A stretch of DNA of 39,591 nt, from assembly GCA_964372845.1 (NCBI GenBank), contig CAYJRS010000002.1, positions 1 to 39,591 of the forward strand, given 5' to 3'. Source of the DNA: Candidatus Woesearchaeota archaeon. GTDB lineage: Archaea > Nanobdellota > Nanobdellia > SCGC-AAA011-G17 > ARS1403. Positions 1,280 through 37,113 of the stretch are shown in pieces. The position numbers and the translations under genes were made by a program. A model generated the notes under the pieces. That model was given only the letters and a program-made list of their open reading frames with translations, did not search any database and was not told where the DNA came from. Position 1 is the stretch's first letter. The number at the start of each line of letters is the position of its first letter.

Positions 1280-1906
1280 ATGGACATCATGAAGTTAATA
1301 AAAACAATCAGAACTGCTTCCAATGAGATCTTCATTTACAATTTTAAAGATAAAACCGTTGCGTTTAAACCAAGCGATGATGTAGAAAAAGAATTATTAG
1401 TGAATAAACTAGCTAAATTATTTGATGTTAATGTTATGAAAATAAAAACTGCTGAGATTGAAGGCAGGAAGGGGATTCTGATGGATTATCTTGAACATAG
1501 TACACTATTAGTACATTATAAAAAGGAATTGGACAAAGAGCAGATCAAACAATTAAAGAAGATAGTATTATTTGATATATGGATAGGTAACAGAGATAGG
1601 CATACTGCAAATATTTTCGTTAATGATAATCTGACTGCATTTGATCATAATAATGTATTTAACAAAAGTGCTGCAAGAAATTTCATTAAACTGGATGTCG
1701 GAAGGAGAGTAAATAAGGATTACGTTGAGATTATAGAAAAGACTTTAAGTAAGAGTTTTACTGTAGCACAAGTATTAAAAAAACTTGGTTTTGCGGAAGA
1801 AGATTTTAGAGAGATAAATGAAAAAGAGATTAGGAGAATCGTTATTGATAAATCATTATCAGAATTCTTAGTTTCAAGAGGGGATTTTAATAGAATTAGA
1901 TTCTAA
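1280..1906 (+). CDS. Atypical protein kinase, HipA-like / PI3-PI4-kinase-like catalytic core
   Basis: Catalytic-loop-like FDIWIGNRDRHTANIFV (GxxDRHxxN) followed by TAFDHNNVF (a DFG-equivalent). Upstream there is an AFKP lysine and an LMDYLE hinge-like segment. Confidence 0.7.
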   Translation: MDIMKLIKTIRTASNEIFIYNFKDKTVAFKPSDDVEKELLVNKLAKLFDVNVMKIKTAEIEGRKGILMDYLEHSTLLVHYKKELDKEQIKQLKKIVLFDIWIGNRDRHTANIFVNDNLTAFDHNNVFNKSAARNFIKLDVGRRVNKDYVEIIEKTLSKSFTVAQVLKKLGFAEEDFREINEKEIRRIVIDKSLSEFLVSRGDFNRIRF

Positions 1907-11352: not shown

Positions 11353-12291
11353 TTATTTTTTTATTATTTTCTTTAATGTGTTGTATTCTTTCATAAATAA
11401 TTCTAAGGTTGGCTTTAGATCTTGTCTTTTCTGGTATGCCTGCAGTGAATTATAATACCCTATTCTGTTTTTAAAATTGATGTTTATTGGCGGCAGATTG
11501 TGCTTTATTAATATGTTATTAAGTAAAATTCTTCCTACTCTGCCATTTCCATCTCTAAACGGGTGAATGTTTTCAAATTGGTTATGAACAACAGCAGCTA
11601 AGACTAAAGCAGGGTATTTATTTTTATTTTTCTCATACCATTCAATCAATTCTTTTAATAAATAATTAATCCTTGCTTGTGATGCTCCTTCGTGAACAAC
11701 AACCCCTTTGCTATCAATCACAGCTACTTCTTCTCCTTTCTTTCTTAGCTTTCCTGCAAAAGGTTTAGAGTTCTTGAAAATAATTTTATGAATTTCTTTG
11801 ATTAGTTCAATTGAAATATGTTCTTTTGTTTTTCTTATAAATGCTATTGCTTCATTTACTCCATATGCCTCAGCAATATCCTCTTTTGACTTGTCAGGCC
11901 ATTTGTCTCTTTCTAATATATCTTTTACTTCAATTTCATTTAGTTTGCTTCCTTCTATTGCATTTGTATTATAAGTAAACAGCTCAGAGAAGACTTTCCA
12001 TTGCCCTTCTGAAAGACGAGGGATTCTTATAGGTATTTCTTTTTCAAGCCTTTCTGCGAATTTTATTTCGTCTTTTGAGAGCTCAAATTTCAAAGGATCT
12101 TTTATCACATTATATCTATATATTTCTTCTAGAATCAGCTTTTCAGCAATCTGCTTTCTTTCTTTTAATTTTTCCGGCTTTAAATCCTGACCTAGATATT
12201 TCCTGAACTTATGGACTTTACTGCCTTCCCTAAGTGAGTGAGAGAGATAATACTTTATTTTGCCTTTTGATTTTCTTTTTTCTATGTGCAT
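11353..12291 (-). CDS. Fic-family protein (AMPylase-type motif)
   Basis: HPFRDGNGRVGR matches HxFx(D/E)GNGRxxR. Confidence 0.9.
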   Translation of the reverse strand: MHIEKRKSKGKIKYYLSHSLREGSKVHKFRKYLGQDLKPEKLKERKQIAEKLILEEIYRYNVIKDPLKFELSKDEIKFAERLEKEIPIRIPRLSEGQWKVFSELFTYNTNAIEGSKLNEIEVKDILERDKWPDKSKEDIAEAYGVNEAIAFIRKTKEHISIELIKEIHKIIFKNSKPFAGKLRKKGEEVAVIDSKGVVVHEGASQARINYLLKELIEWYEKNKNKYPALVLAAVVHNQFENIHPFRDGNGRVGRILLNNILIKHNLPPININFKNRIGYYNSLQAYQKRQDLKPTLELFMKEYNTLKKIIKK

Positions 12292-12426: not shown

Positions 12427-13245
12427 ATGCAAACAATAAAGCTTGCTTCTGGATATGAAATGCCTGTACTAGGACTAGGTACTTGGCAGTTAACAGGAAG
12501 AAGATGCAAGGAAGCTGTGAAAAAAGCAGTTGAGTTAGGATATAGACATATTGATACTGCTTGGATTTATGATAATCAGGAAGATGTTGGAAATGCAATT
12601 AAAGAATCTTGGATTAAAAGAGAAAAATTATTTATAACATCAAAAGTTTGGACAGACAACTTAAGGTATGAAGATGTGTTGGAGCAGTGCAAGGAAACAT
12701 TAAATCAACTAAAGTTAGATTATCTTGACTTGTATCTGATACACTGGCCTAATAGCGATGTGCCTTTGGAAGAAACGTTTAGGGCATTTAAAAAATTAGT
12801 GAATGATAAAAAAGTTAGAAGCATTGGTGTTAGCAATTTTAATATAGCCAGAGTTAGAGAGGCAAAGGAAAAAAGTGAAATTCCAGTTTCTGTGAATCAA
12901 GTTGAATATCATCCTTACCTGAACCAGGAATCTTTATTAGAGGAATGCAAGAAAAATAAAATTACTTTAACAGCTTACTCTCCCTTGGCAAGAGGAAACA
13001 TCATTAATGATAAAGTTTTGAAAGCTGCTGCAGAGAAATATAATAAAACTACTTCTCAAGTTGCATTGCGCTGGCTACTGCAGAAAAACATTATTGCAAT
13101 TCCAAAAGCAAGCTCTGAAGATCATTTAAAAGAAAATTTGAATATTTTTGATTTTGAATTGGAAAAAGAAGAAATAGAAAAAATAAATAAAATAAACATT
13201 AGGAAAAGATTGGTAAATCCTGGGTTTAGTGAGTTTGAAGATTAG
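12427..13245 (+). CDS. Aldo/keto reductase
   Basis: GYRHIDTA, LIHWP, NQVEYHP; 272 aa. Confidence 0.9.
   Translation: MQTIKLASGYEMPVLGLGTWQLTGRRCKEAVKKAVELGYRHIDTAWIYDNQEDVGNAIKESWIKREKLFITSKVWTDNLRYEDVLEQCKETLNQLKLDYLDLYLIHWPNSDVPLEETFRAFKKLVNDKKVRSIGVSNFNIARVREAKEKSEIPVSVNQVEYHPYLNQESLLEECKKNKITLTAYSPLARGNIINDKVLKAAAEKYNKTTSQVALRWLLQKNIIAIPKASSEDHLKENLNIFDFELEKEEIEKINKINIRKRLVNPGFSEFED
13210..13245 (+). repeat. Aldo-keto reductase 3' end, copy 1 (in-gene)
   Basis: Encodes LVNPGFSEFED-stop. Imperfectly repeated at 13834-13869 (26/36 nt; 7/11 residues identical). Confidence 0.7.
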
Positions 13246-13280
13246 AAAGATTTAATAATTAGCCGCACTATTCTCATAAC

Positions 13281-13469
13281 ATGAAAAGTTTAGAAAAAAT
13301 CAAAAATAAATATGTAGGGAAATGGATTGCTTTATCCGGCGGAAAGGTTGTAGCGGTTAATTCCGACTACCATGAGTTGCATAAAGATTTAAAGGAAAAG
13401 AATTTTAGAGATATTTACGTTGTTTATTCTCCAAGTCCTGAAGATAAAAAATATGAAACCATGCTGTAA
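13281..13469 (+). CDS. DUF5678-like small protein
   Basis: KYVGKWIALSGGKVVAVNSDYHELHKDL. The stop is directly followed by the next ATG (TAAATG). Confidence 0.6.
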   Translation: MKSLEKIKNKYVGKWIALSGGKVVAVNSDYHELHKDLKEKNFRDIYVVYSPSPEDKKYETML

Positions 13470-13841
13470 ATGAGGTATTACAATAAATTAAAAGTTAAAG
13501 CTATTTTTTCTAAGAGAAACTTGAGATATGCTGAAGATGCTATTATTGATACAGGCTCTTCAGTTACAATTATTCCTCCTGAAATAGCGGATTATCTAGA
13601 ATTTGAACCGGATAAAGAAAACCCTTCAATGAAAATAGTTACTGGTTCTGGAATATTAGAAATTCCAAGAAAAATAGCAACAACAATGAAAATTAATGAT
13701 TTGGTGTTTACAGATTTTCCTGTTGGAGTGCATGAGTTACCTAAAGAAGTTGAGACTAAAGTTCTAATAGGGATGGACATTATTAATCAAATAAAACTAA
13801 TAGTTAATGGGAAGAATAGAGAGTTTGAAATCATTAGTTAA
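13470..13841 (+). CDS. Retropepsin-like (clan AA) aspartic protease
   Basis: AIIDTGSSVTIIP (D-T/S-G active site) and the later LIGMDIINQ flap/dimer region; 123 aa. Confidence 0.75.
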   Translation: MRYYNKLKVKAIFSKRNLRYAEDAIIDTGSSVTIIPPEIADYLEFEPDKENPSMKIVTGSGILEIPRKIATTMKINDLVFTDFPVGVHELPKEVETKVLIGMDIINQIKLIVNGKNREFEIIS

Positions 13842-13869
13842 TCCTGAATTTAGTGAACTCGAAAATTGA
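13834..13869 (+). repeat. Displaced copy of the aldo-keto reductase 3' end (out of frame with the protease gene)
   Basis: Reads LVNPEFSELEN-stop in its own frame, versus LVNPGFSEFED-stop at 13210-13245. Confidence 0.7.
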
Positions 13870-13870
13870 G

Positions 13871-13919
13871 TTTTAACCGCTTCGCTGATGGACAACGAAG
13901 TTTTCCATGAGCCTTTCCT
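13871..13919 (-). repeat. Intergenic hairpin-repeat family, copy A
   Basis: TTTTAACCGCTTCGCTG-ATGGACAAC-GAA-GTTTTCCAT-GAGCCTTTCC. It starts 1 nt after the stop of the displaced reductase end. Confidence 0.75.
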
Positions 13920-13980
13920 TTTACAACATAATATTCATAACATATAAAAAAATAAATACTAAAAATACCTGAATAGGTTT

Positions 13981-14358
13981 ATGGGTAAATTAATTTATTG
14001 TGCAACACCTTCTAGATTAGTTCATAGGATTGAAGATATTATGGACTTTGTTACAAAAAACGATTATGCTCCTTTGCATCCATTTCAAGCATTTCCTTAT
14101 GAGAGATTTGAAGGAAATCCGAAAATTGGGAGGGACAAATCGATGGAATGGTGTTTGAGGCTTATCGATGTAAGCGACGAATTCTGGATGTTTGGAATAT
14201 CTGATGGAACATTAATTGAAGTTGTACATGCAATAAATATTATGAAACCGATTAGTTTACAACTTGAGGGTTTTGATCCGGATTGGAAAAGAGTTTATAA
14301 AAAATTAGGTTCGAAATATAAGAATCCCATAGATCCTTTTCTTTATACGCTTAAATAA
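13981..14358 (+). CDS. Hypothetical protein
   Basis: 125-aa ORF in a clean intergenic context; no motif recognised with confidence. Confidence 0.55.
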   Translation: MGKLIYCATPSRLVHRIEDIMDFVTKNDYAPLHPFQAFPYERFEGNPKIGRDKSMEWCLRLIDVSDEFWMFGISDGTLIEVVHAINIMKPISLQLEGFDPDWKRVYKKLGSKYKNPIDPFLYTLK

Positions 14359-14411
14359 AATTATATTACCATAACAAACTTTATAAATGTTCACAATAGT
14401 CTACTTTCACT

Positions 14412-14789
14412 ATGAAACATACTTTTTTACAGCCTCAGGAGATTGAAGTCTTCTATATCTTGCCTGCTTTAAGAAGACATTTAGCTATGTATATGAAATT
14501 GCAAGGTTTGAAGCAGAACAAAATAGCTGAAATATTGCATATTGAAAAATCAGCTGTAAGCCAGTATATAAAAAAGAAAAGAGGGAACAATGTTGAATTT
14601 AGCGAGAATGTTTTGAATGAGATTGCGAAGTCAGCCTCTAAAATAAGAGATGAGTTTAGTTTGTTAGGGGAGACTCAAAGATTATTAAGATTGATAAAAA
14701 GCTCAGGTGATTTGTGCCGGATTCATAAGAATATTTCCAGTATACCAGAAGACTGTGAGCCTGAAAAAATAAATTGTTTTGGGGTTTAA
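14412..14789 (+). CDS. HTH transcriptional regulator with C-terminal Cys cluster, upstream of the suf operon
   Basis: HTH-like NKIAEILHIEKSAVSQYIKKKRG. C-terminal C-x12-C-x6-C (LCRIHKNISSIPEDCEPEKINC). Confidence 0.7.
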   Translation: MKHTFLQPQEIEVFYILPALRRHLAMYMKLQGLKQNKIAEILHIEKSAVSQYIKKKRGNNVEFSENVLNEIAKSASKIRDEFSLLGETQRLLRLIKSSGDLCRIHKNISSIPEDCEPEKINCFGV

Positions 14790-14790
14790 A

Positions 14791-16209
14791 ATGGCTGAAG
14801 AAATAAATATGCAGGATTTTACTATCGATAGGAGCAGGTACGATGATGCTCTTGTTATGGAAAATGAGTTTGAGGCAGCTGAAGGATTGAATGAAGAACT
14901 TGTCAGAGAGATTTCTAGAGACAAAAATGAGCCAGAGTGGATGCTGAAAAAAAGACTGCAGGGATTAGATTGGTTTAACAAAACTCCTTTGCCTAACTGG
15001 GGGCCAAGAGAAGTGAGGGAGAAGCTGGACTTAAATAAAATAAAATACTATATCAAGCCCGGAGCTAAAGAAGCAAGAAACTGGGGGGATGTTCCAGAAG
15101 AGATAAGAAAAGTTGCTGAAAGGATTGGAATTCCCGAGGCTGAAAGAAGAGAACTTGGAGGAGCTGGGTTTCAATTCGATTCGCAGATGGCTTATCATAA
15201 TTTAAGAAAAGAATTGGAAGAGCAGGGAGTTGTATTTGAAAACATGGATGTTGCTCTGCAGAAATATCCTGAGCTTGTTAAAAAATATTTTATGACTTCT
15301 TGCATACCTATTAATGATCATAAATTTATAATGCTGCATGCTGCTGTTTGGAGCGGTGGAACTTTTATTTATATTCCTGAAAATGTGAAAGTTAGAATTC
15401 CTTTGCAAGCATATTTTAGAATGAATGCAAGATCTGGAGGACAATTTGAGCACACTTTAATAATTGCTGATAAAAATTCTGAGGTAGTATATATCGAGGG
15501 CTGTTCAGCACCAGTGTATTCTGAAAATGCACTGCATGCTGGATGCGTCGAGATACATGTTTTGGAAGGAGCTAGAGTAAGATATATGAGCGTCGAGAAT
15601 TGGAGCAGAAACACGTTTAATTTGAATACAAAGAGAGCAATTGTCCAGAAAAATGGAATTGTTGAGTGGTTAAATGGAAATATGGGATCGGGAGTTACTA
15701 TGCTCTATCCCTGCTCTGTTCTCGTTGGTGAGAATGCTAAATCTGATTCTCTAGGAATTGCATTTGCTGGACCAGGACAGAACCAAGATACTGGAAGCAA
15801 AGTTATCCATGCAGCTCCTAACACTTATTCGACGATAAAAGCAAAGAGTATAAGTAAAGGTGGAGGGATCTCAAGCTATAGGGGGTTGGTGAAAGTAAAT
15901 AAAAATGCAAGGAATACAAAATGCAGCGTTAACTGCGATGCTCTGCTAATTGATGATAAATCCATATCGAATACTTTTCCATTTATGAAAATTGATACTA
16001 ATGAAGTTGACATTGCCCATGAGGCCTCTGTTGGAAGAATTGGCGACGACGAAATCTTTTATTTAATGTCCCGCGGCTTAAGTAAAGAGCAGGCAATACA
16101 GATGGTTGTTGCTGGCTTCATCGAGCCTGTGGTGAAGCAACTGCCTCTTGAATATGCTGTTGAATTGAATAAACTAATTGAATTAGAAATGGAAGGAAGC
16201 GTCGGCTGA
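14791..16209 (+). CDS. sufB: Fe-S cluster assembly protein SufB
   Basis: Typical SufB length and C-terminal motifs (HEASVGRIGDDEIFYLMSRGL). An alternative ATG at 14779 overlaps the regulator. Confidence 0.95.
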   Translation: MAEEINMQDFTIDRSRYDDALVMENEFEAAEGLNEELVREISRDKNEPEWMLKKRLQGLDWFNKTPLPNWGPREVREKLDLNKIKYYIKPGAKEARNWGDVPEEIRKVAERIGIPEAERRELGGAGFQFDSQMAYHNLRKELEEQGVVFENMDVALQKYPELVKKYFMTSCIPINDHKFIMLHAAVWSGGTFIYIPENVKVRIPLQAYFRMNARSGGQFEHTLIIADKNSEVVYIEGCSAPVYSENALHAGCVEIHVLEGARVRYMSVENWSRNTFNLNTKRAIVQKNGIVEWLNGNMGSGVTMLYPCSVLVGENAKSDSLGIAFAGPGQNQDTGSKVIHAAPNTYSTIKAKSISKGGGISSYRGLVKVNKNARNTKCSVNCDALLIDDKSISNTFPFMKIDTNEVDIAHEASVGRIGDDEIFYLMSRGLSKEQAIQMVVAGFIEPVVKQLPLEYAVELNKLIELEMEGSVG

Positions 16210-21027: not shown

Positions 21028-21137
21028 TACTTACTAATCTGCTTTCCTCTGAATCTGTCATGACAACTGCATGGGCAGTAAACATTTCCAATTGGTAGAT
21101 GCCCGCATTTTTTACAGTGTTTTATTCCATCTTCCAT
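21027..21137 (-). CDS. Possible 36-aa zinc-binding peptide
   Basis: MEDGIKHCKKCGHLPIGNVYCPCSCHDRFRGKQISK. GGAGAGGG lies upstream. The ATG lies inside the 31-bp cysS-end repeat. Below the ORF-track cutoff. Confidence 0.4.
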   Translation of the reverse strand: MEDGIKHCKKCGHLPIGNVYCPCSCHDRFRGKQISK

Positions 21138-21148
21138 TTCACACCTTT
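21118..21148 (-). repeat. Perfect 31-bp copy of the cysS 3' end (distal copy)
   Basis: TGTTTTATTCCATCTTCCATTTCACACCTTT is identical to 23115-23145. Confidence 0.9.
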
Positions 21149-21169
21149 TTATCCCTCTCCTCAAATTTT

Positions 21170-21718
21170 TTATTTGTATTTATTCCTTTTGCTTTCTTGT
21201 AGTTTTAGAAATTGCTCTGGTTTAATAATTTCTATACCAAGATCAAGATTTTTAATTTTATTATACAAGGCATCATCTCTTGTTACAAAATACCTGCATC
21301 CACTTTTTATAACTTGAAATATTAAAATAGCATCTATGAATTCAACACCTTTCTTCGCCAAATTAGTTATAAACTCCGTATCTAACTCGTGAGTTTTCTT
21401 AGAAGCGATCTCTTTTAAATCACCTATAATATTTTCTATACCCTTTAATTCATCTTCACTTAATCTAATATTTCTCTTAGCCTCCAAAAATTCTCTTGTA
21501 TGGAATCCCAAGTCGAATAATTTTAATTCTAGAAATAATTCCTGCAACACAGACCTATATTCTAATAAAGTCCGATCTGAAATAACTAAATCTATCTTGT
21601 CTGTTAAGTAAAGTTCTGCAATTGATAAAGCCCTCTTTAGTCTTGGTGAAATGTGCTCTTCTTCTTTCCTCTCTGCCAATGTTAAGTCCACCAAAATATT
21701 TGTATCTAATGCTATCAT
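21170..21718 (-). CDS. PIN-domain nuclease with an internal insertion
   Basis: MIALDTNILV (first acidic residue), FIDAIL and VTRDD (later acidic residues). At 182 aa it is longer than a typical VapC. Confidence 0.7.
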   Translation of the reverse strand: MIALDTNILVDLTLAERKEEEHISPRLKRALSIAELYLTDKIDLVISDRTLLEYRSVLQELFLELKLFDLGFHTREFLEAKRNIRLSEDELKGIENIIGDLKEIASKKTHELDTEFITNLAKKGVEFIDAILIFQVIKSGCRYFVTRDDALYNKIKNLDLGIEIIKPEQFLKLQESKRNKYK

Positions 21719-21956: not shown

Positions 21957-22053
21957 TTGATTTCTTTTTTCTAAAGTAGGGATGAAAGGGGGATAATCCC
22001 TTCAAGGAAAGGCTCATGGAAAACGTAGTTGTCCATCAGCTTAAGCGGTTAAA
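21957..22053 (+). repeat. Intergenic hairpin-repeat family, copy B
   Basis: GATTTCTTTTTTCTAAAG ... GGAAAGGCTC-ATGGAAAAC-GTA-GTTGTCCAT-CAGCTTAAGCGGTTAAA. It ends 1 nt from the HEPN stop codon. Confidence 0.75.
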
Positions 22054-22080
22054 TTTATTCTATCTTCCATTTCACGCCCT
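22054..22080 (-). repeat. Degenerate copy (24/27) of the cysS 3' end, forming the C-terminus of the HEPN ORF
   Basis: Encodes EGVKWKIE-stop versus cysS KGVKWKME-stop. Confidence 0.75.
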
Positions 22081-22510
22081 CTTTTGTCAATTGTTCAAAT
22101 TTTTCTCTTATTTCTGGTAAGGCTTGTTTTGCAAATTCTAAAGCCTCTGCACATTTTTCTGATGATATCTCTTCTGCCTTATAGACTGAACTGTTTCTAA
22201 GCATTCTGTAGCTATCAATCACATTTACTTCTCCATCATTTAACATTTTATACCCTTTAAGAAACGCTATTAAAGCTTCATGAGAGTAAGGCTTATACCC
22301 TTTTATTTCCATCAAGGATTGTGAAGCTTCTCTTAATGATTCATAGATATCTTCAAAGATAATGGATGATTCCGATTTGGTTATTTTTTCATTCATTACC
22401 CTTCTAAGCCTGACTTCAGCTTTTTGTAACAATGATCTTGCCATACCAAGATTAGGAATTGATTTTCTTACAAGATTTTCATTCACATAATATTCAAATG
22501 GCTTGATCAT
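22055..22510 (-). CDS. HEPN-domain protein (partner of the upstream nucleotidyltransferase)
   Basis: All-helical 151 aa with an RMLRNSSVY region at the HEPN motif position. ATGA overlap with the upstream MNT gene. Confidence 0.8.
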   Translation of the reverse strand: MIKPFEYYVNENLVRKSIPNLGMARSLLQKAEVRLRRVMNEKITKSESSIIFEDIYESLREASQSLMEIKGYKPYSHEALIAFLKGYKMLNDGEVNVIDSYRMLRNSSVYKAEEISSEKCAEALEFAKQALPEIREKFEQLTKEGVKWKIE

Positions 22511-23034
22511 TTTATTATTTCCATAAATCCTTCTAAAACTATGCCGTTAGCAAGTGAATTTTTAAATTCCTTTTCTGCCTTATCAAGGTTAATTAAATAA
22601 ATATTAATTTTTCTTGCCAGTTTATTCTCAAATTTCTTAAGGTCCGGAGTTTCTTTTTTGGAGGTGATTATTGCTATGTCTATGTCGCTTTTTTCTGTGT
22701 CTGTGCCCTCTGAGTAACTACCAAATAGTATAATTGCCCTAGGCATTTCGTAATGCTTTTTGATAAAATCTATAAAACCGATATCATATAAAGAATAAGT
22801 GTTGTAAAGCCTTTTAATTAGCAAGAATTTTCCGTTAAAATCAGGCCTAACTTCTTCTATATGCTTTACTTTTTTTGTGGTCAGCAGTTTTTCTTTTTTC
22901 AGCTTTTTTACGATTTTTATTATGCCTGTACTTGACAGCCCTGTTAATCTTGAAATCTCTCTTATATGGAATGTCCTATATGGAAACTTAAAAAATAATT
23001 CCATGACTTTAAGATTGTTATCTTTTGTGATCAT
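22507..23034 (-). CDS. Minimal nucleotidyltransferase (MNT) with N-terminal winged-helix domain
   Basis: ILFGSYSEGTDTEKSDIDIAII (GS ... DxD). Confidence 0.85.
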   Translation of the reverse strand: MITKDNNLKVMELFFKFPYRTFHIREISRLTGLSSTGIIKIVKKLKKEKLLTTKKVKHIEEVRPDFNGKFLLIKRLYNTYSLYDIGFIDFIKKHYEMPRAIILFGSYSEGTDTEKSDIDIAIITSKKETPDLKKFENKLARKINIYLINLDKAEKEFKNSLANGIVLEGFMEIIK

Positions 23035-23114: not shown

Positions 23115-23145
23115 TGTTTTATTCCATCTTCCATTTCACACCTTT
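23115..23145 (-). repeat. cysS 3' end, proximal (in-gene) copy of the 31-bp repeat
   Basis: Covers the last 8 codons, the stop and 4 nt downstream of cysS. Identical to 21118-21148. Confidence 0.9.
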
Positions 23146-24471
23146 CTTTGTGTCTTCTAAAATAATTCCTTTCTCTTTTAATTTTTCCCTGATCTTATCT
23201 GCTTTCCTGAAATCTTTTTTCCTTCTTGCCCTTTCTCTTTCCTGGATTAGTTTTTTAATTTCAGCAGATAGTTTTTTTTCTTTTATTGTTAATATATTGA
23301 ATACTTTATCAAATTCTAACATTAACTGATAACTTTTCTTTCCTCCCCCTTTCTTGTTGACTTTGTTCATGAAATCAAATATAACTGCTAATGCCTGCGG
23401 TGTATTGAAATCGTCATTCATTGCTTCTACGAATTTTTCTTTTGTTTCTTTTATTAACTGTAAATCGTCTTTTTCTTTGCTGCTCTTTAAATCTAAAACA
23501 AAATTGTTCAGCCTTTCCAGTGCATTCTTGCTTTGCTCTAATATGTCGAATGAAAAACTAATTGGAGTTCTGTAGTGATTTGAAGCAAAAAAATATCTTA
23601 TAACTTTTCCGTTGTATCTTCGTAGAGCCTCCTTTATAGTTATGAAATTCCCTTTTGATTTGCTCATTTTTTCCTTGTCGGTATTTAAGAAAGCTGTATG
23701 GAGCCAATATTTAACTAAAGGTTTTTTGCCTGAAATCGATTCCATCTGAGCTATTTCTGCTTCATGATGCGGGAATATCAAATCAACTGCGCCTCCATGA
23801 ATATCATATTGCTGTCCGAGTTCTTTTTCTGTTATTGCAGTGTCTTCGATATGCCATCCTGGCCTGCCATCTCCCAATTTCCATTTCCAGCTTGGATCTC
23901 CTGGCTTTGAAAACTTCCATAAACAGAAATCTCCTTTGTTTCTTTTTTCCTGATTTTCGTCTATCCTTGAAACTGCGTCTTCAGCCTCTTCGTGTTTTCT
24001 TTTAGCTAACTTTCCATAATCTTTAAATTTAGTCAGATCAAAATAATAACCATCTGAAGTTTTATATGCGCAATCTCTTTCTAACAGTCTCTGCACTTGG
24101 CTTTGAATCTCTTTTATGTAATCTGTTGCCCTTGCATATCTGCTTATTGAGTCTACTCCTAGTTCCTTCATATCTCTCAGATATTCATTTTCATATTTTC
24201 TTGCTATCTCTTTCCATGAAGTTTTTTCTTCTCTTGCTTTTTGTATTATTTTATCATCTATATCTGTTACATTCTGCAGATAGAAAACCTTGTATTTAAG
24301 ATAGTGGAGATATTTTACTATTATATCGAACTGTATGTAGGTTTTTGCATGACCTATATGGGCAAGATTATAAGGAGTTAAACCGCAAACAAACAGATTT
24401 ACTTTTTTCCCTTTAATTGGCTTGAAAACTTCCTTTTTTCTTGTTAAGGTGTTGTAAAGATGTATTTGCAT
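23119..24471 (-). CDS. cysS: Cysteinyl-tRNA synthetase
   Basis: HIGHAKTY and KMSKSKGN class I signatures; 450 aa. Confidence 0.95.
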   Translation of the reverse strand: MQIHLYNTLTRKKEVFKPIKGKKVNLFVCGLTPYNLAHIGHAKTYIQFDIIVKYLHYLKYKVFYLQNVTDIDDKIIQKAREEKTSWKEIARKYENEYLRDMKELGVDSISRYARATDYIKEIQSQVQRLLERDCAYKTSDGYYFDLTKFKDYGKLAKRKHEEAEDAVSRIDENQEKRNKGDFCLWKFSKPGDPSWKWKLGDGRPGWHIEDTAITEKELGQQYDIHGGAVDLIFPHHEAEIAQMESISGKKPLVKYWLHTAFLNTDKEKMSKSKGNFITIKEALRRYNGKVIRYFFASNHYRTPISFSFDILEQSKNALERLNNFVLDLKSSKEKDDLQLIKETKEKFVEAMNDDFNTPQALAVIFDFMNKVNKKGGGKKSYQLMLEFDKVFNILTIKEKKLSAEIKKLIQERERARRKKDFRKADKIREKLKEKGIILEDTKKGVKWKME

Positions 24472-33300: not shown

Positions 33301-33546
33301 ATGACCATGATGAATTTCTCAGGAATGAATTTTTACATGCAGGACTGGTTTTTATTTCCTGGGTTTATGATGTTTGGAGTTGCGGTTGGTGCTTTGTTCT
33401 TGGCTTTCTGGGTCTGGATGATTGTTGATTGTGCCAGGAGAAATTTTAAAAATGGTAATGAGAAAATTATTTGGATTCTGATTATTTTGTTTGCAAAGGT
33501 CATTGGGGCTGTGATTTATTTCTTTGTTGTGAAGAATCGGAAATAA
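33301..33546 (+). CDS. Small membrane protein with a PLD-nuclease N-terminal-like (PLDc_N) domain
   Basis: WVWMIVDCARRNF...KIIWILIILFAKVIGAVIYFFV. Confidence 0.65.
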   Translation: MTMMNFSGMNFYMQDWFLFPGFMMFGVAVGALFLAFWVWMIVDCARRNFKNGNEKIIWILIILFAKVIGAVIYFFVVKNRK

Positions 33547-36984: not shown

Positions 36985-37058
36985 GATTTCTTTTTCTAAA
37001 AGAAAATGTGAGGGAAAGGTGGATGGAAAACGTAGTTGTCCATGAGAGTGAAGCGAAT
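36985..37058 (+). repeat. Intergenic hairpin-repeat family, copy C
   Basis: TTTCTTTT-TCT-AAAAGAAA hairpin, TGTGAGGGAAAGGTGG, ATGGAAAAC-GTA-GTTGTCCAT, GAGAGTGAAGCGAATAA. Confidence 0.7.
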
Positions 37059-37113
37059 AAAAACTAGTTTTTGAAAGATAAGATTTATAAAGAATGTATT
37101 CTATTATATAATT

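Follow-up and report, generated by a model that had tools for sequence, protein, structure and literature searches.

Cis-mobilisable elements (CIMEs) have no integrase of their own, are flanked by att sites and can accrete in tandem at the 3' end of a target gene (PMC5704250). In att-flanked elements one of the flanking copies is derived from the host and the other from the incoming element (bioRxiv 10.1101/2020.12.28.424599). The present analysis concerns a 39,591-nt stretch of a Candidatus Woesearchaeota archaeon (contig CAYJRS010000002.1, positions 1 to 39,591), hereafter called the window, in which two small genes, encoding a DUF5678 protein and a retropepsin-like aspartic protease, lie between two copies of the 3' end of an aldo-keto reductase gene. 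The copy that ends the reductase gene is termed t1 and the copy behind the protease gene is termed t2. The 0.6-kb unit made up of a putative promoter, the DUF5678 gene and the protease gene is read here, with a probability of about 0.55, as a mobilisable cassette that carries no recombinase, is bounded by att-like repeats of the 3' end of its target gene and has a toxin-antitoxin-like or defence role. Among the described systems the closest match would be an att-flanked integrative element without its own integrase, that is, a CIME. As in CIMEs and tycheposon-type islands, no integrase lies inside the unit, arrays of elements and repeats occur (here at the gene of cysteinyl-tRNA synthetase, CysRS), and relatives have empty sites and varied cargo. 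The direct repeats include the target 3' end in seven lineages, and empty sites with a single tail are present in relatives. The locus differs from CIMEs in the size of the unit, which is just 0.6 kb with two genes, in that no integrase-bearing parent was found, and in having no att core with inverted arms. The target is moreover a protein-coding gene of a DPANN archaeon, and within the 40 kb of the window the targets are two unrelated gene tails.

The window has a GC content of 33% and is chromosomal, with the Suf operon, CysRS, a PolX-type polymerase, a 5S rRNA and a tRNA on board. The nearest named relatives are Candidatus Woesearchaeota and Nanoarchaeota metagenome-assembled genomes of groundwater origin. 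The comparison set consisted of 43 fetched loci (labelled L with a number), drawn from independent Logan, ENA, JGI and NCBI assemblies. The gene order SLT, Rieske, SOD, a variable slot, reductase, a second variable slot, HTH and SufB is kept across the relatives, and reductase orthologues of 67-92% identity were found in syntenic Woesearchaeota and Nanoarchaeota loci. The coordinates of the features are given in the table.

The two reductase tails of the window are identical at 26 of 36 nt. The sequence-only reading of this DNA had described this repeat and had named a lack of significance against a shuffled low-GC background as the outcome that would speak against it; in 300 dinucleotide-preserving shuffles of the window as a whole, 26/36 was never reached (mean maximum 22.1, sd 0.9). 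On both strands of the window t2 is the top non-self match to the reductase tail, the runner-up reaching 24/36; an unrelated match of 24/36 lies at 33349. A separate repeat finder returned the pair of tails as a repeat of 53 nt at 72%. Further details given by the sequence-only reading were borne out as well. The second tail is in the +1 frame relative to the protease open reading frame (ORF), and the TAA stop of the protease (13839-13841) falls inside the overlap. Exactly two coupled genes lie between the tails, with abutting ORFs (TAA/ATG junction at 13467-13472). The divergence between the tails is mainly at third codon positions (6 of 10 nt differences), the amino-acid changes being G to E, F to L and D to N, and hairpin repeat copy A starts about 1-2 nt past the stop of t2.

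Table. Features of the reductase and CysRS loci and of the hairpin repeats in the window
Feature	Position	Strand	Evidence or remark
Aldo-keto reductase gene (272 aa), target with duplicated 3' end	12427..13245	+	PF00248, 3e-68
t1, functional reductase tail, left direct repeat, TTGGTAAATCCTGGGTTTAGTGAGTTTGAAGATTAG, LVNPGFSEFED then stop	13210..13245	+	34/36 to the single tail of sister lineage L028
Cassette leader, archaeal TATA-like box TTTAATAA at 13251-13258	13246..13280	+	Sequence reading; putative promoter
Lineage-variable segment from reductase to HTH-SufB (cassette, t2, hairpin, 125-aa DUF7768-like gene)	13262..14379	+	L028 homology ends at 13261 and restarts at 14380
DUF5678 protein, 62 aa, cassette gene 1, proposed partner or inhibitor	13281..13469	+	PF18929, 1.2e-9
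Retropepsin-like aspartic protease, 123 aa, DTGS and LIGMD motifs, cassette gene 2	13470..13841	+	PF13650, 1.4e-11; PF13975, 2.3e-11
t2, second reductase-tail copy, right direct repeat, TTAGTTAATCCTGAATTTAGTGAACTCGAAAATTGA, LVNPEFSELEN then stop	13834..13869	+	+1 to the protease frame, overlaps the protease stop
Hairpin repeat copy A, directly behind t2	13871..13920	+	May be terminator-like or a small mobile repeat
CysRS-locus cassette 2: PIN gene 21170-21718, then third CysRS tail copy 21122-21157	21122..21718	-	PIN, 1.8e-5
Hairpin repeat copy B	22004..22053	-	Behind the HEPN-like ORF
CysRS-locus cassette 1: nucleotidyltransferase 22507-23034 and HEPN-like ORF 22055-22510	22055..23034	-	PADLOC PDC-M05A 7e-16, PDC-M05B 2e-6; Polbeta/NTP_transf_2
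CysRS tail copy 1, 3' end of the CysRS gene (23119-24471), ending DTKKGVKWKME then stop	23119..23154	-	Sequence
Hairpin repeat, third copy	37013..37060	-	

The site behind the reductase was compared among the relatives, and the extreme 3' end of the gene is a recombination hotspot with empty and alternative states. In the closest relative of the window, L028 (reductase 92% identical to that of the window), the homology runs 16 nt beyond the t1 stop, breaks off and resumes only at the far end of the variable segment, and a fatty-acid desaturase gene stands 23 nt past the reductase stop. The desaturase was also found in L029-32 (89%). In L033-35 (76%) the HTH gene follows directly, which makes this a clean empty site. 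The other states are an HNH gene with two small ORFs in L036/37 (74%), a hairpin repeat with a 469-aa gene and a PIN/MazE pair in L038/39 (71%), and a 105-aa membrane ORF in L006 (67%). A second reductase tail was sought at L028-32, L033-35, L036-39 and L006 and none was found, so that the desaturase, HNH and PIN/MazE cargo is ruled out as being likewise flanked by reductase tails. On the reductase tree the lineages with and without cassette are interleaved, giving a patchy distribution. The sequence-only reading had proposed looking for an empty site in which the reductase is followed directly by hairpin copy A. This arrangement does exist in L038/L039, where the hairpin (L038 3815-3860) lies directly behind the single reductase tail and its outer stem carries a compensatory change from GCU/AGC to GUU/AAC; the lineage is however a distant one, and other cargo stands behind the hairpin.

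The DUF5678-protease pair lies directly behind the reductase in eight lineages (the window, L021, L022, L014-19, L024, L027, L005/L023 and L040). Seven of these eight have the second tail, at one and the same place, in the +1 register throughout and overlapping with the stop of the protease gene; a set of orthologous loci all carrying the pair with no duplicated end, which had been raised as evidence against the sequence-only reading, was not what was found. In L022 just the last bases of the protease itself are left. The two tails form a perfect 30-nt repeat in L005 and are identical at 34/36 in L040 and at 31/36 in L014, where all five differences are synonymous. The pair of the window (26/36) is among the two most decayed, the most decayed being that of L024 (25/36).

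The tails co-vary within genomes, as the observed mean similarity was reached by 0.4% of all 5040 re-pairings (p=0.004). Lineage-specific variants are common to both tails, namely ATT (Ile) in L005 and CCA (Pro) in L040. Between genomes the t2 copies are 73% identical, compared to 30% for the next 27 nt, and the codon signature GGC TTT TCT occurs in several t2 copies and in no t1. The co-variation, the shared variants, the difference in conservation and the signature private to t2 together indicate that t2 is a maintained sequence trading information with t1, and neither a fresh scar nor freely drifting DNA. Since the copies have been reshuffled or homogenised, the direction of the original event cannot be read from them. 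The earlier proposal that the incoming element supplied the working end t1, with t2 as the displaced end of the host, was for its part not established; the t1 of the window looks native, matching the single tail of L028 at 34/36 compared to 27/36 for t2.

The history of the cassette itself was also followed. The cassette tree contains two clades that cut across the reductase tree. Between L005 and L040 the identity at four-fold degenerate sites is 55% for host genes (SOD, reductase, HTH, SufB) and 79% for the cassette (Fisher p=1e-4), which points to a recent transfer of the cassette. Between L014 and L027, 28 of 44 four-fold sites agree in the reductase and all 26 of 26 in the DUF5678 gene. 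The pair L014 and L024 shows the cassette to be less similar than the reductase, with 20/23 four-fold sites agreeing in the reductase tail region and amino-acid identities of 77% for DUF5678 and 88% for the protease. The window is 100% identical to L014 (3770-3866) over 13242-13298 and 95-97% identical on to about 13338. Besides the reductase stop and the cassette leader, this tract takes in ~58 nt (about 19 codons) at the start of the DUF5678 gene, and outside it the reductases are 72%, the proteases about 72-75% and the flanking genes about 72-81% identical. A near-identical tract amid such flanks is therefore taken as a tract of recent recombination. These comparisons show the cassette to be accessory and exchanged between lineages. 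In L024 an IS6-family transposase gene (289-1086, DDE_Tnp_IS240, 2.9e-16) sits between the reductase tail and the cassette as an unrelated secondary insertion.

The pair was found in three further unrelated contexts (L010-13, L020 and L041-43). In L041-43 a direct repeat of 19 nt, TATTTGGAGGTTTAAAAAA, stands on either side of it, without mismatch in L042 and with a single mismatch in each of L041 and L043. Both copies (L042 831-849 and 1441-1459) lie directly 5' of start codons, those of the DUF5678 gene and of a downstream DUF1554 gene, and the repeat could partly be a stereotyped ribosome-binding site. The protease gene of L041-43 ends in GAGATTAGTTAAT (GAG ATT AGT TAA T), which has a 12-nt match to the start of the reductase tail, AGATTAGTTAAT (AGA TTA GTT AAT). 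A TnpB/Cas12f-like ORF is present ~2 kb upstream in L041. Support for the pair as a small cassette, mobile or mobilised and carrying no recombinase, as the sequence-only reading had claimed, comes from the empty and alternative sites, the patchiness, the tree conflict, the synonymous sites, the three unrelated loci and the arrangement of L038/L039 with the hairpin right behind the reductase.

Other duplicated gene ends in the window were sought by comparing the terminal 36 nt of every ORF of 90 aa or more with the 3 kb downstream, for which the background maximum was 23/36. Just three tails exceeded this value, those of the reductase, of CysRS (31/36) and of a HEPN-like ORF (27/36). Read along the minus strand, CysRS is followed by a nucleotidyltransferase/HEPN-like pair, hairpin copy B, a small basic ORF, a PIN gene and a third CysRS tail copy. 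The second tail copy (22055-22090, EGVKWKIE then stop) forms the in-frame C-terminus of the HEPN-like ORF, and the third copy matches at 31/36 and contains in addition a perfect 31-nt run, AAAGGTGTGAAATGGAAGATGGAATAAAACA, shifted by 5 nt. At the CysRS locus two toxin-antitoxin-like cassettes form an array, with a copy of the host gene end bounding each of them, and the architecture is that of the reductase locus.

The individual genes of the cassette were analysed for their predicted role. The TATA-like box lies 23 nt upstream of the DUF5678 ATG, and the cassette transcript is probably leaderless. The protease scored 45.3 bits with PF13650 (cutoff 24.3) and 44.5 bits with PF13975 (cutoff 28.2), and its matches to TIGR02281 and TIGR03698 were below the cutoffs only. 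Residues D27, T28, G29 and S30 are invariant in 17 homologues, and in the LIGMD motif I, G and M are invariant. The protein has the DTG motif, the single-lobe domain and the hhGxD motif of clan AA retropepsin-like proteases, and in a profile search it weakly matched the retropepsin domain of Ddi1. It resembles the RVP domain of Ddi1 and rickettsial APRc (PMC4140852) as a single-lobe DTG protease of ~120 aa needing dimerisation, with DTGS and LIGMD motifs; it differs from both in being a free-standing archaeal protein without membrane or UBL/UBA domains, always paired with DUF5678. A single-sequence search of PDB gave nothing for the protease and weak lectin matches, apparently spurious, for DUF5678. 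An exhaustive profile search among 1.84 billion proteins gave 29 representatives of this DUF5678 subfamily at E<=1e-3, mostly of 52-107 aa, showing it to be small. No fusion of DUF5678 to a protease was recognised among these 29 representatives, the longer matches of which were not scanned for protease domains. The literature search on the biology of DUF5678 gave one unrelated match and no paper that discusses the domain.

In every one of 11 lineages and four genomic contexts the DUF5678 gene lies upstream of the protease gene in the same orientation, and in L020 the two ORFs overlap by 17 nt. Adjacent, co-oriented and coupled small genes that always occur together are a property of type II toxin-antitoxin systems such as VapBC and MNT-HEPN, with which the cassette also shares the order with the small partner first, the patchy and horizontally exchanged distribution and the position in a hypervariable hotspot with Fic, PIN/MazE, HNH and MNT/HEPN neighbours. 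We know of no retropepsin-like protease that is an established toxin, and to our knowledge DUF5678 is not an established antitoxin. The variable cargo around the cassette is itself toxin-antitoxin-like or defence-like (Fic/SoFic, PIN/MazE, HNH, MNT-HEPN). The protease matches the PADLOC candidate PDC-M08B (8.3e-14, residues 9-118). PDC systems are candidates picked by guilt-by-embedding, and PDC-M08 is the two-gene cassette CAS_00054 with 381 RefSeq instances (Payne et al., bioRxiv 10.1101/2024.01.29.577857). The present pair is like PDC-M08 in being a two-gene cassette with a matching protease, and unlike it in that DUF5678 does not match PDC-M08A. In the literature search the only occurrence of PDC-M08 was a cassette ID listed in a supplementary table. 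It is plausible that the cassette is a toxin-antitoxin-like or defence-type module.

In the mechanism proposed for the mobilisable cassette, t1 and t2 would be junction repeats behaving like attL and attR. Recombination between the tail copies, or between a cassette-borne and a resident tail, would insert, delete or swap the cassette, and the reductase would stay intact each time. The process would be driven by a recombinase acting in trans or by host homologous recombination. The right junction probably first formed at a microhomology of 10-12 nt between the protease end (ATT AGT TAA) and the reductase codons AGA TTA GTT AAT; such an origin would account for the shifted frame of t2 and for its overlap with the protease stop. 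The cassette would be driven by its own TATA-like promoter and its two ORFs would be translationally coupled. The aspartic protease, as a homodimer, would act as effector, and the small DUF5678 protein would restrain or sense it.

Several results weigh against this interpretation. A search of the cassette and its surroundings, of the 43 fetched loci and of 27 window ORFs, a set from which the smaller ORFs and a few of at least 130 aa were left out, gave no recombinase and no integrase cognate to the repeats; within this scope the statement of the sequence-only reading that no recombinase is present holds. The reductase and CysRS tails are unrelated in sequence, and one sequence-specific recombinase therefore cannot serve both. 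The inverted-arm core typical of tyrosine-recombinase sites is missing from the tail, and no terminal inverted repeats were found in the cassettes of the window, L005 or L040. The cassettes at L010 and L020 have no detectable flanking repeat, and that of L022 is without t2. Neither a same-species empty site nor an excised circle was seen, all four same-species contigs carrying the cassette. The exchange may also reflect no more than allelic recombination of the ordinary kind among lineages in which the cassette was already present. On the side of function, DUF5678 gave no match to the PADLOC models including PDC-M08A, either for the window protein at E<=0.1 or for ten broader homologues at E<=1; a search for phage or plasmid copies of the protease returned none; and structure prediction gave a predicted local distance difference test score (pLDDT) of 57.8 for DUF5678 and 33.2 for the protease, values too poor to draw on.

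These results leave room for other explanations of the locus. A single ancient insertion with target duplication may have been followed by vertical descent with repeated loss or replacement, t2 being kept by gene conversion, the mosaic pattern arising through allelic recombination and the repeats being a scar of a cassette no longer mobile as a unit. This is rather unlikely, though it would account for the same place and the same junctions in eight lineages and for L014 and L024, which share t2 and the downstream flank by descent and differ in their cassette interiors. Most pairs of lineages are saturated at four-fold sites and are therefore uninformative on transfer, and neither a recombinase nor an excised form was seen. 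The reductase tree would however require at least four independent losses, and 73% identity across lineages with four-fold sites at ~55% is not expected of a neutral scar of 27 nt without very frequent conversion. The near-perfect repeats of L005 and L040 coincide with a recently shared cassette, the pair occurs at three unrelated loci, one with its own 19-nt flanking repeat, and CysRS shows the same architecture independently. An insertion mechanism that makes target-site duplications, in which staggered breaks 20-40 nt apart are filled in, would make both copies host sequence, and the surviving insertions would be those that keep the upstream gene intact and give the downstream gene expression signals. 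Such a mechanism would suit the host-lineage variants carried by both copies in L005 and L040, the dependence of repeat length on context (19 nt in L042 against 30-38 nt at the reductase site) and the same architecture at the unrelated reductase and CysRS targets. It is nevertheless improbable here. We know of no enzyme for duplications of 30-40 nt around a 0.6-kb insert, save CRISPR repeat duplication and target-primed reverse transcription, and neither of these is indicated at this locus. The signature GGC TTT TCT, shared by t2 copies and absent from every t1, suggests moreover that t2 has a lineage of its own and is not made anew with each insertion, and the cassette is without defined ends or inverted repeats.

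It is still less probable that t2 is a functional coding or regulatory sequence, either as a +1 frameshift extension that gives the protease the C-terminal peptide of the reductase or as a 20-aa overlapping ORF (MGRIESLKSLVNPEFSELEN). The synonymous nature of all five differences in L014 would be in accordance with a coding role, and so would the +1 frame, which in seven lineages runs open to a stop in roughly the same position and has an in-frame ATG upstream. Periodic copying of t2 from a t1 under selection would give the same synonymous pattern just as readily. Cassettes without the tail exist in L022, L010, L020 and L041-43, and t2 shows non-conservative changes in the window (G to E) and in L024 (G to S, F to S) and altered ends in L005, L021 and L027. 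Chance similarity in a low-GC genome and an assembly artefact carry practically no weight. The 33% GC content of the window and the unrelated 24/36 match would be in their favour; chance is ruled out by the shuffles and by the recurrence of the repeat at the same position in seven lineages, with one perfect 30-mer and one pair at 34/36, and an artefact by the same layout in the independent Logan, ENA, JGI and NCBI assemblies.

Other known classes of element were compared as well. Integron cassettes, among them the toxin-antitoxin cassettes of chromosomal integrons, are similar in being small units of one or two genes without recombinase, in forming repeat-bounded arrays, in being swapped between lineages and in commonly having toxin-antitoxin cargo, and archaeal integrons have been reported. 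The repeats of the present locus are however copies of a host gene end and not attC hairpins, the cassette has its own putative promoter, and there is no IntI or attI. An integron attC site was ruled out on the finding that GTTAATC/GTTAACC of the tail is one base off GTTRRRY, with no paired RYYYAAC, and that no IntI was found. A classical transposon or insertion sequence was ruled out by the lack of terminal inverted repeats and transposase and by repeats as long as 19-38 nt. The variable repeat/template repeat pair of a diversity-generating retroelement was ruled out likewise, as 4 of the 10 differences are not at adenines of t2, no reverse transcriptase is present and the repeat is just 36 nt long.

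The genomes of DPANN archaea are tiny, with few mobile elements that can be recognised and few known defence systems, and the gain and loss of their accessory genes is poorly understood. The reductase locus offers a handle on gene flux in these organisms, with a 0.6-kb cassette, clear junction repeats, natural empty and alternative sites, exchange between lineages and a second example at CysRS. If the repeats are working recombination sites and not a maintained scar, the turnover of cassettes at the ends of housekeeping genes could be one of the chief routes by which these organisms gain and lose genes, and new toxin-antitoxin or defence modules could be found by their position at such ends. 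The DUF5678-retropepsin pair would then add a protease-based module and give DUF5678 a function. A wider proposal, which is put forward tentatively and must be considered unlikely, is that the DPANN archaea have an undescribed general insertion route that needs no cassette-encoded recombinase and uses short homology or an enzyme in trans. By this route toxin-antitoxin or defence cassettes would enter housekeeping genes at their 3' ends, every insertion would leave a duplication of 20-40 nt of target sequence, arrays would build up, and the DUF5678-protease pair would be a new protease-based family carried in this way.

The hairpin repeat of ~50 nt has the stem GAUGGA.CAAC/GUU.UCCAU followed by a T-rich tract, and its three copies in the window compare with 0 expected. 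Two of the copies sit 1-3 nt past a duplicated gene tail. At the gathering threshold the hairpin had no match in Rfam, the window yielding only a tRNA and the 5S rRNA. The octamer TTARCCGC is enriched in the window, with 6 matches (9151, 13259, 13353, 13873, 22045 and 23071) against 0.6 expected. Both the reductase and the CysRS locus have it behind the first copy of the tail, near the left cassette junction, and it occurs again where hairpins A and B start; it may be part of the cassette boundary.

Some observations were made on the neighbouring genes. In the lineage-specific segment behind hairpin copy A, a 125-aa ORF (13981-14358, +) has weak similarity to DUF7768 (4.8e-4, below the cutoff) and is absent from L005, L040 and L028. 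The slot between SOD and the reductase is variable too. In the window it holds a Fic-domain gene (11353-12291, -; PADLOC PDC-S04 4e-34, SoFic 2e-33), as it does in several lineages; it is occupied by a PIN pair in L038, by other genes in L040 and L014-16 and by a 94-aa ORF in L005, and is empty in L028. Several relatives (L014-19, L033-37) have a SufB of 852-876 aa containing an intein with a LAGLIDADG domain, and the SufB of the window (14779-16209, 476 aa) is without intein. A 208-aa ORF at 1280-1906 (+) shows similarity to HipA-like kinases below the Pfam cutoffs and matches PADLOC PDC-M03A, and it may be another toxin-antitoxin or defence candidate.

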